Below the pieces are notes generated by a model. It had not been told where the DNA came from and did not search any database. It saw nothing but the letters and a program-made list of their open reading frames with translations. Of a stretch of 64,000 nt of DNA, positions 12,548 through 50,103 are shown one piece after another; positions within the stretch are counted from its first letter, which is position 1; the number at the start of each line of letters is the position of its first letter. The stretch comes from Podarcis liolepis (taxonomy: Eukaryota): the NCBI GenBank assembly GCA_965112155.1, contig OZ218103.1. One strand, written 5' to 3'. The position numbers were made by a program, and so were the translations under genes.

Positions 12548-15500
12548 GTAAATAGCTTTGCTGCTAAGGAAGACTGTAGCATTTTCTATTAAAATCAATT
12601 GGAAGATTATCTAATAGGAAAATGTTTTCATTCACTTGGTTGAACTGAAAATATAGAATCCCACACATTTTAAATCCTACTGGGAATATATTTTGTTTGA
12701 TGTGAGTTTGCCACAGAGATCCTGACAATTAGAATAGAGAGAAGAAATGACAGGAACACTGCATCAGATCTCACTTTGATACTGAGCCTATCAACATCTA
12801 GTGTATCATTCACTCACTGGCAAAGCACACATTCAGTATATATTTCACAGTTACTGGCTGGAATTAGGAAATTTAGTTGCCAGCACCACCAAATCACCAT
12901 CCTGTTCAGCTTTCAGCTGTGTGTGTAAAATGCTTTCATTAAACCATTCAAACATATGGAAATATACAACTCCAGGCCTACACAAATCAATGGAAAATAC
13001 ACAGAAACCTTGGTGTTATGATCTAAAAACAAAAATCTGCATAACCCATTAAGCAATTCCTCATTTGGGTTCATTAACTTTTTTTTTTAGTGCTAAAGCA
13101 CTAAAATTCAATATATTGTGATCTGCATAGGAACTTCAGGAAAACACGTTTGACCTGTATAACAATTCTCTGTAGGCCAAAAATATATAGATTCTTTATG
13201 CAAATTATGTGCTAAGGATAGGAACCAAACACTGCACTTTTCTTACATAAATGTTTAAAAAAGAGAATTTTTAAAAAGTTGTTTCTGATTTGTGTGTAAA
13301 CAGTTTTGAATTTTTATTTTCTAGCTATGAAATGGCTATGGAATGTACTTTTTTCCCTTGAAAATGTACAGTATGTAGTAATTATTTGTGTCATAAAAGC
13401 AAGAAAATAAATCATGTGTTACCCATCAACTTTACTAGTTGCTGACAACCTAATTGCTGCTGGGAAATGCACTTTATTATAAGCATGTGGGGGGCGGGGA
13501 AACCATACGAGATGCAAGAGCCACAGACTGGGGGTTTCCACACTTCCAAAGTACTGCCATTTGCTACCTTCTCTACAGTGTCATGGCATTATTAAAAGAA
13601 TTCTCATAACATTTTATATTTACAAAAAAAACCTGGCAAATTTCATTCAAACTCCTTAAAGCCATTTCCCCTTAAACATTTAAAGAGTTTTATGGTAAGT
13701 TTTTTTTTTCCTTTTTAATTTCAAGTTATAAAATAAAAATCCCATTTGAATTTTTCTGATGTACAAAAAGTGATAAAGATGAACAATTTGATCACAGAAT
13801 CAGTTTCAAAATTCATGCCATCTTCATCTTGGTTAATAAAGTCCATCCCAATCAAATCCAGAAAGCATACTGGAAGTATTTGGCAAACAATTTTTTTCTC
13901 TCTCTCTCTCTTCAAAAATGGCACACAGAGAAGAAAAACACTTGTCTGCATAGCATTACAGCAGCAAGATATCAAAGAAATAAAAAATATTCCTTTACTG
14001 GTCTTTGTTTTAAGAGTCCCCTAGGAAATAACACTGTTAAGTCTTTTTCTTCTTCTTTTTCTTCATCAAAATATTTGATGTCCTTTTCTACCCACAGCAG
14101 AAGTATTCAAAACAAAAAAGCAGCATTTCATCTCTTTGATGTACTGTAATTTCAAAAGGTCCATTTGGCAACGTTTCCCAATCAAGATGGATAATCAGCA
14201 GAATGGCAATCCATGGTTTCAAGTTAAGGATAATTTTCACAGGAGGCGTTTTGCTGCTAGAGTCTGTCACCTGTCTGTAAGAAAAGGGGATAGAATGGAA
14301 CACTCAAATACTTTGTCCCCCCCACACCTTCAAATATGCCATTATGGAGTAGTATTGGGCAGTGGTGGTGGGGAATACAGCCAGATCAGTCTAATATGGT
14401 GATAAAAAGTCACCATATCATCAAAATGTGCAGCCACAGAGCTCAATGGCTGTAGAATTCATGATTTTTTTCCTGCTTTTTTATATTATTAAATGATTAG
14501 CAGTCCTTTAACAGATTTGAACTGATTACTTCCATAATGTGGTGCACTTGAAATGGCAAAAAAGTGACAAGGCGTGGTGGGATATGCTGGATAGTTGAAA
14601 CTTGAGGAAAGGTTTTGCTTGGATATCAGAACTGTGGAACAAAACAAAAGTGTCATGTTCTGCCATAGAGAGTTGCCACTGGTTGCCAAAACATTTTGCT
14701 TGTTGAACTGATGCAGTGAGGTGATTATCCTTTATTAGATGAGATCAACTGCAAGAAAATGTGGGAGCCAAAGGCCTGTCAAGGCTGTAGTTTTCTGTTT
14801 GAGTCTTGAAGCACCACAAGCGTGGGTCAACGCTATTTCTTAGGTCTGTTGATCTGGGCATAGAGAGGCTCTCTTTCCTGGGAACAATAGAAAGAAATGT
14901 GAATAGAGACAATTCTAGTCATTTGTATCTAAGCAGCAGATTTCAAGGGAGTAGGTAAGTAGAATAAAAATGCTAAAGATAGCATTTTTATTATTTTGAA
15001 TTATGATGGTGTTTGAAAAGGCAGTAATAATATAAAAGGAATCAGCAATTCCACATTGTTTATTAAGAACCCAATGTTTAAGTTGAAACGATTATAATGA
15101 AATAGAATTCATGTACATCTCACACTACAATTGAGACCAGAAGAGGCTAAGTTTGCAATTATTGTTTTTAAACACACAGAGCAAATCGGCCCATTGCCCT
15201 CACACCCTGAAAGACGATTCAAGACAGCTGACTAAATGGTAAAAATATTATATTTATTAAAATGTAGCAAAATTAGAGGGTCTGCCAGTTAAGCAAATAA
15301 TTAAGTGTAGGCAGGTGGAATCGATGAATGCATATGAGAGAAGCAACCCTCTATCTCATTGGAATGTAAGCCATTGCATTGTGAGTCCCAGGACTGGGAG
15401 CCAAGGACTGGGAGAAAAATCTCCCTTTTTGCTGAGCAAGCCTTGGGTATGTGAAACCCAACCTGCACACCTGACTCTTCCTGCGGGGCATTCATCATGA

Positions 15501-17873: not shown

Positions 17874-18706
17874 CAGTGGTGCCTCACAAGACGAAATTAA
17901 TTCGTTCCACAAGTTTTTTCTTCTTGCGAGTTTTTCATCTTGTGAAGCACGGTTTCCCATAGGAATGCATTGAAAATCCATTAATGCGTTCCTATGGAAA
18001 CTGCTTGCCAGGCTGGCGGTGCGGAGAAGGTCTTTTCTCCCCACCGCAAGCCTTCAGGACAGGTACGGGAACAGAGGGGAAGGGGCGCAGCGCTTCTCCT
18101 CTGTTCCCGGGGCTTGCGGTGGGAGGAGGGTTTTTCCTCCCCACCGCCAACATTCAGAACAGCATTCTGAATGTTGGCGGTGGGAAGGAAAACCCTCCTC
18201 CCACTGCAAGTCTTCAGGACAGCCATCTGAAGGCTGGCGCGGGGAGAAGGTCTCTCCGTCCCACCGCCAGCCTTCGGAGGAGCCTTCCGAAGCCTGGCGG
18301 CGGGAGGAGGTCTCTCCACCCCACCGCCAGGCTTCGGAGCAGCCTTCCGAAGCCTGGCGGTGGGGCGGAGAGACCTCCTCCCGCCGCCAGCCTTCGGAGC
18401 ATCCTTCCGAAGCCTGGCAGCAGGAGGAGGTCTCTCCGACCCACCGCCAGGCTTCGGAGCAGCCTTCCGAAGGCTGGCAGCAGGAGGAGGTCTCTCCGCC
18501 CCACCGCCAGCCTTTGGAGGAGGTCCGAGGACAGTGGGGAAGACGCGCTGCGCTTCCCCGCTGTCCCAGAGATTTCCCTATGGGTTTTCGTCTTGCGAAG
18601 GAAGCCCATAGGGAAATTCGTTTTGCGAAGCGCCTCCAAAACAGAAAACCCTTTCGTCTAGTGGGTTTTCCATCTTGCGAGGCATTCGTCTTGCGGGGCA
18701 CCACTG
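17874..18706. mobile_element. Tigger/pogo-like non-autonomous transposon with an internal 60-bp GC-rich palindromic minisatellite
   Basis: TA|CAGTGGTGCCTCACAAGACGAA...TTCGTCTTGCGGGGCACCACTG|TA; about five 60-bp units at ~18215-18520. Confidence 0.9.
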
Positions 18707-19094: not shown

Positions 19095-19849
19095 CAAATA
19101 GCCTTTATGTAGCTTAGCTTTACAACTAATAGTACTGTTTGCTCCCATTATTATTTTTCTAAGAGAACTACCATTCTGGACCTTTTCTTCAAGCTAAAAG
19201 TATTACCAAACACCTTATATCCTTTACTATTGTCCCTGTATTCTTTATTATCTTAACAGAGACCATCCCTTTTTGCTAGTGGAAGCCAACCAGACAAGGT
19301 GATGGGCAGAATTTTTCTTACTGATGTATGTAAGGCTGGCATAAAAGATGCATTATGAACTTAAACTTGCAATTCTCCCAAGGCTGCTTTGACCTCTGCG
19401 CTCCTATGTAGATTTTAAGCAGAGTGTTTTCCTTCTGGCTGGCTGAACAGAAAGTAGAATCTCAGCTGATGCATTTCAGAAAATAAGTCTTCTGCTTCCT
19501 GATCATCCAGTCAGAAGGAAAGCCCTGTGTTGAGACTCTGCTGCAGAGAAAGAAGGTCAAGGAATCCCAAAGGAGTAGCACCTCAGTCAAGATTGTAATG
19601 TATCTTTTATACTACAAGCTAGGCTTCTTTAGAGAGCCAGTGGAGGGGTAGGCGCAGGGCTGTTCTGCTTCCTTATGGTGAAGGGACCCTTGCTTTATGT
19701 ACACATTAATAACAGCTGCTATATAGTTCTCCTTTGCACTGGGCTTCATGATGAAAAACAAGCCTCTAATTGTGCTTTGCTTGGTTATCCCGTCCCTATG
19801 ATGAACTCATTTACAGTACTCAGCATAGTAGGACATAGTATTTTATATA

Positions 19850-20499
19850 CCATATTTTTCGCCCTATAGGACGCACTTTTCCCCCTCCAAATATGAAGGG
19901 GAAATGTGTGTGCGTCCTATGGGGTGGATGCAGGCTTTCGCTGAAGCCTGGAGAGCGAGAGGGGTTGGTGTGCACCGACCCCTCTCGCTCTCCAGGCTTC
20001 AGGAGAGCCCCAGCCCCACTAGGTCGGGGGACAGAGGGAGGCGGAACGCCACCATCCCGCTGTCTCCCGAAGTGGTTTGGAGGCTGACGGCGGGGAGAAG
20101 AGCGCTTCTCCCCGCTGCCAGCCTCACAAGCTCTGGGGACAGCTGGGAGGCGCAGCGCGTCTCCCCGCTGCCCCCAGACCTGATCTGAAGGCGGGCGGTG
20201 GGGAGAAGAGCGCTTCTCCCCGCTGCCTGCTCCGCAAGCTCCGGGGACAGCTGGGAGGCGCAGCGCGTCTCCCCGCTGCCCCCAGACCTGATCTGAAGGC
20301 AGGCGGTGGGGAGAAGAGCGCGTCTCCCCGCTGCCCCCGGACCTGATCTGAAGGCGGGCTGCGGGAAGAAGAGCGCTTCTCCCCGCTGCCGGCCCCACAA
20401 GCGCCTGGGGGGGGGAAATAATTTTTTCCCCTTTATTTCCCCCCCAAAAAACTTGATGCGTCCTATGGGCCAGTGCGTCCTATGGGGCGAAAAATACGT
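19850..20499. mobile_element. Tc1/mariner-superfamily (Tc2/pogo-like) non-autonomous element with internal 108-bp tandem repeat
   Basis: TA|CCATATTTTTCGCCCTATAGGACGCAC...GTGCGTCCTATGGGGCGAAAAATACGT|TA; repeat units start at 20092, 20200 and 20308. Confidence 0.88.
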
Positions 20500-21264
20500 T
20501 ATATATATATCACCCCATAACTTGAATATCAGTAGTTATAACTAACATGTTTGCTTCATGTTAACTACTTGGCAAAATGGTTATGGGGCTGAATTTAGCT
20601 GGACCATTTTGACCTACAGTAAGTGGGCTGTATCTGGTCACTGTTATCCTGTGAGACAAAAGCACACTTGGCCCAGGGATTGGGGGAAATGTGATCACTC
20701 CACATTATAATGCAGACCTATCTAATGTGCCCTCTGCGAATGAATACATGAACTGGAAAAGGAGAAAACAAAAGAGACAAATTTCACCATTCATAGTTCA
20801 GCTTAGCAGCCCAGGACTAGCTTCGAGTGTTCACAGAGATTCAAAGTGCTCTTGCGTGTTGGCAACATTTCTGAAAAGGGGGCCTAGAAGGATAAACAGC
20901 ACCTGAATCACACCCCCCCAGGTAATTTTCAAAATATAAAGATCTTTACTGTAATAGTGAAGCCAATTCATTTATGCATAATTATGTCCCATGTTATTTG
21001 AAGGTAGACCATCGACTATAGTTAATATATGCAGCTCCTCCAAGTACAGGTCCAAATATGTTAAATGACAATAGGCTCACCTCCAGGAATGACAGGAAAC
21101 TAAGCACCATAGTTCTCCTATCTCAGTCCAGTTCTCCTCAAATTGAAGGTTCTGCGCTACAGGTGACAACCTTTAGACAGCAGCCAAAAGGAATGTGTCA
21201 GAGGGTAAAAACTGCATGTGGCTGCTCACTGCTACAGAAGGATCAGCCCTTTATGCTGACAACC

Positions 21265-22677: not shown

Positions 22678-24574
22678 TATATACAGAGGCAGCATAAACA
22701 AGATCATTGAGTGAAGATAATATAGCTTCCAAGTGCATCACTGAGTGCAACAGAACCCTGTGTTCATGCCAAGTTTATTCACTTCCAAATTCTAAAGCCG
22801 TCTATAAATATGAAGACCTCTCTCTCCCCCTCTTACTGGGAGAAGATGCTTAGCATTAATGAAGTAGGACTGAAGATATTGGGCCTTGTCACAGTTTTAA
22901 CTATTGATCATAGAGAACAAACTTGGACTATTCGCCCTCTAAATATTGTGGTAGCTTCAAGGGAAAAGAACAGGTCCATTCAATTCCTTAATGCAGCAGT
23001 TGCCAACATGGAGCCCTCTAGATAATTTAGGCCTCCATGTTCCATTGGCCTAATGGTAGAGGGTCATTGGAGTTGTAGTCTAAATCATTTGGAGGGCACC
23101 AATTTGGCCATCCCTGTCTTAATGCTTTTTCAGATAGACTATTATTTAACTGTAGATTTCCCCTACCTGATGAAAGTGCGGGAGAGCCAAAACGGAACAC
23201 CTGCTCATCCCTCCCTTTAAACTGTCATAATGCTAATATGGAGCCATACAATGTGCAAACATTAAACAGCAAAGCACAATAGTATAGTTCAAACTGATGG
23301 GGAAAGTGGGATAAAGGAGTATTTTTAAAGAGACAAAGTAGTTATTGAAGAGTTTGACACCCCCTTAGTTGTATACTGCTTAGAAATCTAAAGCCACAAA
23401 TGACAAAGCAAACATTTCAAATTTACCTAGTGAGACTGCACAGACTTCAGGGATGACAGTGGTTTCAGGTGAGGGCAGAAATGGTTTTAGGCTCATGGGA
23501 AAGGGACTATTGGATAGCAGCTAGTACATTCAGATATCTGTGGTTGGAAGCACATTCTTAAAAGCCTGGAAACCGATGCACATTATGCACTAAAAATAAA
23601 TCCACCATTTCCATTAATTTGTTTCATATGCTCCATACACAGAAAGATGAGCAATAAATCACATAGTGCTTGAACTGTTTCAAATCACAGCGCAGTGTAA
23701 TAAAAGAAACATTTTTCATATGGCAGCATTGGAATACATTGAGATGAGATGGGGATGTTCAACACTCACAGGCACTGTAGCATCACAATCTTTCTGACAA
23801 AACACAGATGCCAGAATAAAAATAGCCACGGTCACCCTCATAAAACATCTATCAACACCCACAACATGCAGCGTGCAGTTAACGATTAAAGCAATTGTGT
23901 TGCCTTAGCATTTTGTCATGGAAAATATATATTTAAAATGATAGGGTGGGTTGTTAACCCATAGACATCAACATTGTAATTTAATATTTTCATTAGACCC
24001 TTTAACTAATAGGTTTTCCAATTGACCATTATTGTGGCCACAGAGTGGGAAGGCACATCTTAATTTATGGATGGTGCTTAATTCATTCTCTTAAAAAATA
24101 TGTTGCACTGCTGATGTCATTTCAGTCCTGGATGAACATTGCCTGCCACTTTGCAATTTCTATCAGAAAAAGATAAAATACACAATATACAAATATTTTA
24201 AATGCTAATCATGAATACCAGAAACTGCAGAGCGTCAATATTGTGTAAGAAAAACAACAACTATGAACCTGTTGTTGATAATCTCTCATTTCACAGTTGC
24301 TGTAATATATATTTTCCCTAGGGTTGTATTTTTTTTTTTTATAATTATTCTGACAACACAAAAGTGCACCACCTAGAAACAGAATTATCAACCAGTGATG
24401 CATCAATGGTGTGAGAAGTAGTGAAATGAAGGTATGAAATATTCCATTTTGTATATGTGGAATATATTATGTTTGTGGCTAGCATCAATGTAAATGAAGG
24501 CAGGCAATGGTGAATATGAATAGCTCAAAAGTGACAGAGAGAAAAGGACAGATACCTACCCCAACCTGCGCTAT

Positions 24575-24658
24575 CTAGCTATCGCCCTGTGGACTTACAG
24601 TATCACCAATGGGCTCACCAAATGGATCACTGTTGGATGAGGCCTGAGATCCATCAGG
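24575..24658 (-). CDS. DAB1: DAB1 exon 14, coding part with canonical stop (exon continues 15 nt to 24560)
   Basis: PDGSQASSNSDPFGEPIGDTVSPQGDS-TAG, then ATAGCGCAGGTTGGG|GTAGGT. Confidence 0.95.
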   Translation of the reverse strand, partial: PDGSQASSNSDPFGEPIGDTVSPQGDS

Positions 24659-26575
24659 CTAGAATACAAGAACATAACACCTTTTTTTCTCAACAACAGA
24701 AAGGAAAACAAAGTCAGCAGTTATTTTCATGCAGTGGGTGCATTTTAACATGAATGCCTATTGTGGATGAAAATAATTTAAAAGTCATATACTACAGCTG
24801 ATATTTCCTAGGACCAACTGGTGCCAGTGGGCCAGCCCTGAATAAGATAGTAAACTGATTTGAGCTCACAGAAACAGTTTTTTAGGTTAGTGCATTTTGG
24901 CCAAAGCTAACTTTACCTTCAAGACTTGGTCAAGAAGCAGACAAATGCCTAGTGCATGGCTTCTGCTTTAAGCCTGCCTAATTAGTGGTTCTAGTTTGTG
25001 ATGAGCCATTCATGTGAAGCAGTTGCCATGGCCACATCTGACTATTTTTGCACCGCAACTCAAACCCAGCCAAATATGAGTTTTCAGCAACGTGAGAGCA
25101 ATCTGGATCTGTGTATGGTGCCCATAACTAGTTTGTGGTCATCACAAGCAAATTTGGACACCACAGATCTGAGACCAAGTTGCCATTATCAATGTGAGGT
25201 CATGCTTCTGCTGTCTCCTTGCAAGTGGGGCAGGCACAGAGTCATGCGTTAGCTATTGTATTCACCACTCGTGCTATTCAACTTAAGCCAAGCCATGTGA
25301 TTGTACTGACAGCAAAACGTATCCATATTGTCACCTACCCAAGCCACTACACATTGACCTGTGAAGGGTTGTCCATTCCCAGTATTAAGGTGTATACTTA
25401 CTTTCATTTTCAAATGTCACTGATTCCCCCCTCCCCCTGGGAAATCAAATGTGTTGTGCTATTTTTACAATGTCTGAAGAAATCTGCCAGCTCCTCCCCC
25501 TGGAAACAATCTGGTCATATAAAGCATTCCTGTTGAATGCTAGAAAATGGAGAGCATGGATTCCCTCTTCCCTGCCAATCATCCTCCCTGGCTTGCCCTG
25601 GAGAAAGCAGAGGGAAGAACTCACTACTCCGTAAGATCCTTCCTAGGTTGAGTTCAGCCTGAAGGGGGCAAAACTCGACTCAGACACTATGAGTGCCAGG
25701 GGCTGCATTTTGAACTCCCCCTCCCCATTGCATCACACCAAAGTCTCTGAACTCCTTTGTCTTTCTGCCCCAATATCTTTGTGTTTCTAAGGCAGAGCTG
25801 CCAATTTATATTGGCTACAACGGTGCCATCACACAAAGCTTCGGTGGCACACTGCTTCCTGTTCTTGAAATCTAATTCACAGTTGCTCCTCCTGAATTCT
25901 GTCTCTTCGAAGAGCCGGCAGGAGGAGGTAGATATGGACTAATAAATCATGAGAGAACAATCCAGCAGAAATGTATAACAAGCAGGAACACTCAAATAGA
26001 CTGCATAAGCTGACATGTAGATAAAAATGTTAAATTAATCTGTGCAATCTTCCATTTTGACTTACACATTTTTGGTTCAGCAGTATACATGCTAGTCTAG
26101 CACATATCGGTGCTGATGGGGAAACTGGAAGAGTGAAGTGGGAGCACTGATCAACACTCTGTCCTCTGTAATTTACATTAGTTGTGAGCAGTCAGGAGAA
26201 AATCAGAAGAGTTTGAAGGGTGGGGGAAGGGGGCTGGGTTCATTATTTCTTCTTCTGTTTGATCATTGCATCAAATAGGGAGAAAAATTGAGGGAACATT
26301 TGCGTTCATATCCTAACTCTATTTTTTGTAGGGCAACCTTCATTGCCCAAAGTCAATGTTAAGTGTCTATAATTGGACTAGGAAACACTCCTCTATTTTC
26401 TTCTACAGTCCAATTTTGCTGATTGAATACTACCTTTAATGTGATCTACAGCAAATGTTTTAGTACTCATGCAAAGTAGAATTTGACTAGAATTTTCAAA
26501 ATTTTCAAAACTGTGAACCATGTACATAGTAACTGAGCAGTTTATGGGTTAATGATTTGGAGTTGCCCCACTTAC

Positions 26576-26703
26576 CGCTTCCTGTTCTTCACTTTTACTT
26601 GGACTTTCAAAGCCCTCTTCAAAGAGGTCATCTGCAGCAGGGTCACTGGTATGAGATGCTGAGGATTTGGATGGAGAACTTTGTCTAGGAGCAGGAGTTG
26701 GAG
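26576..26703 (-). CDS. DAB1: DAB1 exon 13 (contains the Cdk5-type SSPSK site)
   Basis: 128 nt, (P)[42 protein letters not shown], ends in phase 0 at GCG|GTAAG. Confidence 0.97.

Positions 26704-49992: not shown

Positions 49993-50103
<111 letters not shown>

Follow-up and report, generated by a model that had tools for sequence, protein, structure and literature searches.

The window, a 64-kb stretch of lizard DNA, covers the 3' part of DAB1, which lies on the minus strand. Proteins of Lacerta agilis and Podarcis match its exon-12 peptide at 100% identity and map residue for residue from exon 5 onward, which marks the DNA as that of a lacertid lizard (exon numbering follows the earlier note on this DNA). 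Three exons at the 3' end of the coding region are central to what follows. Exon 13 (26576-26703) has a phase-0 donor at 26575, which joins either exon 14 or directly exon 15 in the models that we mapped. Exon 14 (24560-24658) is 99 nt long with phase 0 at both ends; it was placed by mapping the models P0007 and P0006, its 3' end being set by the likely donor described below. It carries the TAG stop of the usual DAB1 isoform (24575-24577) and with it the usual C-terminus, and other models skip it. The coding start of exon 15 (14833-14877) reads EREPLYAQINRPKK followed by a stop, and would supply an alternative 14-residue C-terminal tail.

Within exon 14 the sequence reads ACT/GTAAGT on the minus strand (the slash marks the possible exon end), with the GTAAGT at 24598-24593 encoding a Val-Ser pair that doubles as a putative latent 5' splice site. 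The Thr codon before it ends at 24599, exactly 60 nt into the exon counted from the acceptor at 24658, and the TAG stop begins 21 nt after the first base of the GTAAGT. The earlier note had described an in-frame donor at a codon boundary at just this point, and the sequence confirms it. A join from the shortened, 60-nt exon 14 to exon 15, which begins in phase 0, stays in frame and would give a protein of 577 aa versus 570 aa. The hexamer GTAAGT occurs 30 times in the window on both strands, and the expectation of finding one in frame in a 99-nt exon is about 0.008, a value uncorrected for the many exons scanned when the site was picked out. Among the other minus-strand GTAAGT sites in the gene span, 5 of 10 match no compared gene model.

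Several further features of the window were noted along the way. Lacertid models include a single optional 57-nt exon between exons 9 and 10 (36914-36858, minus strand). An open frame in intron 13 (about 25915-25690, minus strand) resembles a C-terminus that is joined to exon 13 in the unnamed protein P0364; in this lizard the bases before it are CGG, so it has no AG acceptor. Intron 14 contains GC-rich arrays of 60-bp and 54/108-bp repeats with internal hairpins (18116-18548 and 19844-20505), and inverted arms of 34 nt border the second of these, an arrangement reminiscent of a small non-autonomous transposon. A thrombospondin-type cysteine/tryptophan peptide at about 1520-1440 (minus strand) marks the next gene downstream, which is likely complement C8B. 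Long DAB1 models fused to a thrombospondin-type neighbour occur in two stingrays and sheep (P0251, P0400 and P0531), and these could be annotation fusions or read-through transcripts.

Donor strength and use in gene models

Donor strength was expressed as the energy of the U1 duplex over two windows, -3 to +6 and -3 to +8. This measure is distinct from MaxEntScan and SpliceAI scores, depends on the sequence assumed for the U1 5' end and over-rewards G-U pairs. Over the shorter, 9-mer window the flagged donor scores -4.9 kcal/mol, a value shared by the exon-10 donor and by the internal donor of exon 9 and close to the exon-5 donor at -5.1, in agreement with the suggestion that it resembles the used donors of exons 5 and 10. 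Of the 2131 GT sites in the gene span, 252 reach this strength. Over -3 to +8 the flagged donor has -5.4, the weakest value among the 14 GT donors listed. An out-of-frame GT site earlier in exon 14 also outpairs it, and donor-like decoys of this kind are common.

The likely normal donor of exon 14 is GGG/GTAGGT (24554-24559), which has the best U1 pairing among the nearby GT sites. We infer its use from this pairing because the site lies 3' of the stop, where it is invisible to protein models. It sits 39 nt downstream of the flagged site and scores -9.5 over -3 to +6 and -11.9 over -3 to +8. The flagged donor had been called a better intronic match than this canonical one, which holds for positions +1 to +6 but is reversed over both of the windows used here. 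With -4.9 against -9.5 at a distance of 39 nt, the flagged site could work as a donor but is weak, and the much stronger downstream donor would be expected to outcompete it.

None of the 115 squamate DAB1 proteins, which carry 31 species labels, joins exon 14 to the tail through the flagged donor; the counts are of proteins and not of independent transcripts, and the gene models behind them are predictions that miss rare junctions. In ninety of these models the protein terminates at the stop of exon 14. Another 15, under 12 labels that include Lacerta/Podarcis and Zootoca, leave exon 14 out and finish with the tail, eight have some other end and two are partial. The set excludes the bird protein P0190, which falls in a squamate cluster, as well as unnamed proteins, its species labels were assigned by hand, and the underlying models come from the best 120 of 1187 matches, two squamate clusters being represented by 15 of their 34 and 15 of their 18 members. 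When we searched with the turtle exon-14-plus-tail region such joins ranked at the top, and no squamate join was present among the 120 matches listed of 158. The proposal that the flagged donor serves as the route past the stop thus finds no counterpart in the squamate models, where the route is exon-14 skipping. The two partial models, from Varanus (P0232) and Naja (P0191), end at the flagged point or one residue earlier, which suggests that gene predictors see a donor there, as a matter of prediction and not of RNA evidence.

The tandem GTAAGT GTAAGT donors of exon 9 (50014-50025) provide an internal control in the form of a Val-Ser donor that is used. As at the exon-14 site, the Val-Ser pair GTA AGT forms an internal phase-0 donor, here CCT/GTAAGT, with the same 9-mer U1 energy of -4.9. 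Its use is visible in 35 proteins that lack the VS pair, at least 11 of them squamate, next to 283 that have it, and this two-residue variant corresponds to the 553/555 naming of DAB1. The same pipelines therefore catch this donor, as well as the bird and turtle donor described below, so comparable minor donors do get captured. The two Val-Ser sites differ in that the exon-9 donor only drops two residues, whereas the exon-14 site has no models and would swap the C-terminus. We think it doubtful that the flagged donor is used to a meaningful extent, and any use is probably minor.

A candidate 24-nt phase-0 micro-exon with AG and GT flanks (23770-23793, between exons 14 and 15) was also considered as a route to the tail and rejected as unsupported, its peptide being present in none of the 536 compared proteins.

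The exon-15 tail and exon-14 skipping

Exons 13 and 15 are phase-compatible, and P0006 maps exon 13 straight onto 14877. The tail is reached by exon-14 skipping in 97 of the 536 compared proteins, which come from mammals, birds, reptiles and amphibians and include models of mouse, rat, macaque, marsupials, frogs, caecilians and newts. The earlier note was right that a way around the stop exists and that exon 15 encodes a peptide. Databases already contain predicted models of the skip isoform, and a shorter human DAB1 isoform in UniProt may be this form. A literature search at the level of titles and abstract starts gave no description of an exon-14/exon-15 isoform of DAB1 or of the tail peptide, and the passages searched in the DAB1 paper PMC3232236 mention neither exon 14 nor exon 15.

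The tail motif also closes 4 of 150 distant Disabled representatives, namely those of the hemichordate Glandiceps talaboti, two amphioxus species and one unnamed protein. These four ends score 48-54 against the 12-residue tail, whereas shuffling the whole set of 150 twenty times gave no score above 33. All four proteins have a PTB domain, and in each the motif comes right after DPF repeats. Named insect or spider-type and DAB2-like representatives within the 150 do not have the motif at their end. Among 16 amphioxus models, 11 end with a Q-EPLYA tail and five end with Q-VG at the same point, just after DPF. A tail-like tyrosine motif with a score of 48 was also seen in the unnamed Disabled-like protein P0349 (residues 192-203), where it lies just after the PTB domain and is not C-terminal.

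The tail varies to some degree, with ESLYA in koala, wombat and newts and EPLYT in two bat models. Its best-kept residues are [LIV]-Y-A-x-[IV], and these are kept even where the basic end varies. From sequence comparison we infer that the tail is the ancestral deuterostome end of Disabled, retained in DAB1 as an alternative last segment. The best reading of the gene models is that it is an old alternative C-terminus made mainly by skipping exon 14.

Origin of the GT and the bird and turtle donor

In a comparison of residues, Val occupies the position of the GT in each of the 29 squamate labels whose exon 14 is complete, as Val-Ser in 28 of them and as Val-Asn in Tiliqua. Tuatara, birds and turtles have Ile at this position (one bird has Leu). 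The earlier note had expected the route to be present in sauropsids and absent from mammals, and this division does not hold: the Val is found in squamates and not in birds, turtles or tuatara, and mammals reach the tail by skipping. A single Ile-to-Val transition on the squamate stem would have made the GT, judging from residues and not from the codons of the relatives. One newt has independently acquired Val at this position and keeps Gln-Val further on, so the exchange of Ile and Val is tolerated. The fixed squamate Val would fit selection for a splice site as well as selection for the residue.

Bird and turtle models exit exon 14 at a different point. In 12 models from seven species (chicken, ibis, gull, penguin, sandgrouse and two turtles), and in one reindeer model, exon 14 is left after SPQ and the tail follows, and six further bird models exit after SPQ into another exon. 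This SPQ/V donor is like the flagged one in that it leaves exon 14 before the stop and reaches the same exon-15 tail in frame. It is unlike it in lying 12 nt downstream, after the Gln codon, where the GT is deduced from the Val codon and not from bird or turtle DNA, and it is dead in this lizard, in which the position (24581-24589) reads CAG/GGCGAT with no GT or GC. The residue following the Gln of SPQ is Val in coelacanth, amphibians, turtles and birds, Gly in tuatara and squamates, and Ala in the mammals compared. The two ends of the amphioxus protein parallel the choice at the bird SPQ/V site, but amphioxus is known here from proteins, and the parallel is only suggestive because any phase-0 CAG/GT donor that is read onward gives Gln-Val.

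A second CAG/GT is present in this lizard just beyond the stop. The 15 nt that follow it (24574-24560, minus strand) read Ile-Ala-Gln-Val-Gly, with the CAG/GT at 24565, and resemble the bird SPQ/VG site; they may hold another donor that is in frame, or be what is left of a short duplication of some age.

An alternative to a latent site is that the flagged GTAAGT is a real, regulated minor donor, by which squamates, after the loss of SPQ/V in lepidosaurs, regained 12 nt upstream the ancestral route, in which the DPF-containing half of exon 14 stays ahead of the EPLYA tail. The intact +1 to +6 match in frame, with the 9-mer energy of two used DAB1 donors, would suit such a donor, as would the two partial squamate models that stop there, but it is used in none of the 115 squamate models. 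The change from Gln-Val in coelacanth, amphibians, turtles and birds to Gln-Gly in tuatara and squamates is consistent with a loss that was later made good, and amphioxus, with its Q-VG stop and Q-EPLYA tail, has both ends. However, both internal sites are missing in tuatara and mammals carry Gln-Ala, so the exon-14-plus-tail route is dispensable, and the SPQ join is found in 0 of the 26 amphibian proteins listed. The fixation of Val across the squamate labels speaks for a used donor. The Val-Asn of Tiliqua, which cannot keep the G at +5 and so breaks the donor, speaks against it. We consider a regained donor unlikely and continue to favour a latent site with a tail made by skipping.

A candidate tyrosine dock and its relation to known systems

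With the tail the skip isoform, 557 aa long, gains a single tyrosine, Y549, in the context EPLYA (14857-14871), which agrees with the pattern EP[IL]YA. The EPLYA and EGLYA motifs of p140Cap are described as being phosphorylated mainly by Abl, binding Csk and lowering Src activity (PMC3561454), and EPLYA motifs in the bacterial protein AteA as binding Crk and RasGAP (PMC13753828). By analogy, the DAB1 tail is likely an SH2 dock, with Csk or Crk as candidate partners. Once phosphorylated by kinases of the Abl or Src families, the tail would recruit either Crk or Csk, the latter acting in Reelin signalling as a brake on Fyn/Src. Inclusion of exon 14 would switch the tail off by way of its stop, and skipping would switch it on. 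The name Dab1 is absent from the main text of PMC3561454 and PMC13753828, and searches for Dab1 together with Csk or EPIYA gave only unrelated matches, as seen from titles and the starts of abstracts.

Our overall reading, which we consider probable, is that the GTAAGT is a latent donor with little or no use, and that the exon-15 tail is conserved coding sequence, modelled by exon-14 skipping, to which Csk, Crk or other SH2 proteins likely dock by way of its phosphotyrosine. A more far-reaching version would be that an on/off switch for a Csk/Crk EPLYA dock is as old as the deuterostomes. The tail would then be ancestral and the usual vertebrate C-terminus a run-on past an old Q/VG donor, still seen in amphioxus, birds and turtles; this donor would have disappeared in lepidosaurs and been replaced in squamates by the flagged GTAAGT, 12 nt upstream of the old place and created by the change from Ile to Val, keeping an isoform with both DPF and EPLYA. 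We put this forward tentatively and consider it unlikely.

The tail could also be coding with its tyrosine serving as something other than a Csk/Crk dock, for example if the basic end (RPKK) binds membranes or importin, in which case the splicing route would be irrelevant. The basic end is indeed conserved together with the tyrosine, and the known signalling sites, as defined by mice in which they were mutated, are the four proximal tyrosines (PMC4928174). This explanation seems improbable to us, however, because the best-kept residues of the tail form an SH2-ligand pattern that persists where the basic end varies. Similarly improbable is ribosomal readthrough of the TAG, in which translation would continue through the five post-stop codons and on into exon 15: no further stop interrupts this frame before the end of the tail, given the likely donor at 24559, and the length of exon 14 is divisible by three, although skipping would not need it to be, but skipping already explains the conservation of the tail, the stop context UAG-AUA is not known as a leaky motif of the kind of UGA-CUAG or UAG-CARYYA, the bridging peptide is found in none of the compared proteins (though gene models would not show readthrough), and the only literature match for Dab1 with readthrough and stop codon concerns yeast.

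If the favoured reading of a latent donor and an SH2-docking tail is correct, the tail would bear on how DAB1 signalling is limited. DAB1 and Src-family kinases form a positive loop that is limited by degradation (PMC4928174), and a Csk dock would add a second brake to this loop, while a Crk dock would add an extra output. The truncated p45 form of DAB1 is hypomorphic, and what the C-terminus does is explained only in part (PMC4928174, PMC4389405). Accounts of DAB1 signalling centre on four tyrosine sites close to the PTB domain. A splice-controlled tyrosine motif at the C-terminus, conserved as far as hemichordates, offers a direct test for a Csk brake or an additional Crk site. This can be approached in mouse, because the skip form is present among the models of both mouse and rat. 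On its own, the flagged donor would amount to a small variant specific to squamates.

Among the closest known systems is p140Cap (SRCIN1), whose EPLYA and EGLYA motifs include a core identical to that of the DAB1 tail and which is likewise a brain adaptor acting on Src-family kinases (PMC3561454). The EPIYA motifs of Pragmin and CagA form a related system. Unlike that of p140Cap, the DAB1 EPLYA is at the extreme C-terminus and belongs to a splice isoform only, and it is known here from its sequence. The tail is also comparable to the known splice switches in the tyrosine-rich region of DAB1 (exons 7/8 and 9b/9c), in that splicing changes the number of SH2-binding tyrosines. Those known switches remove sites near the PTB domain (Tyr185, 198/200, 220 and 232; PMC4928174), whereas the tail would add a site at the far end of the protein.
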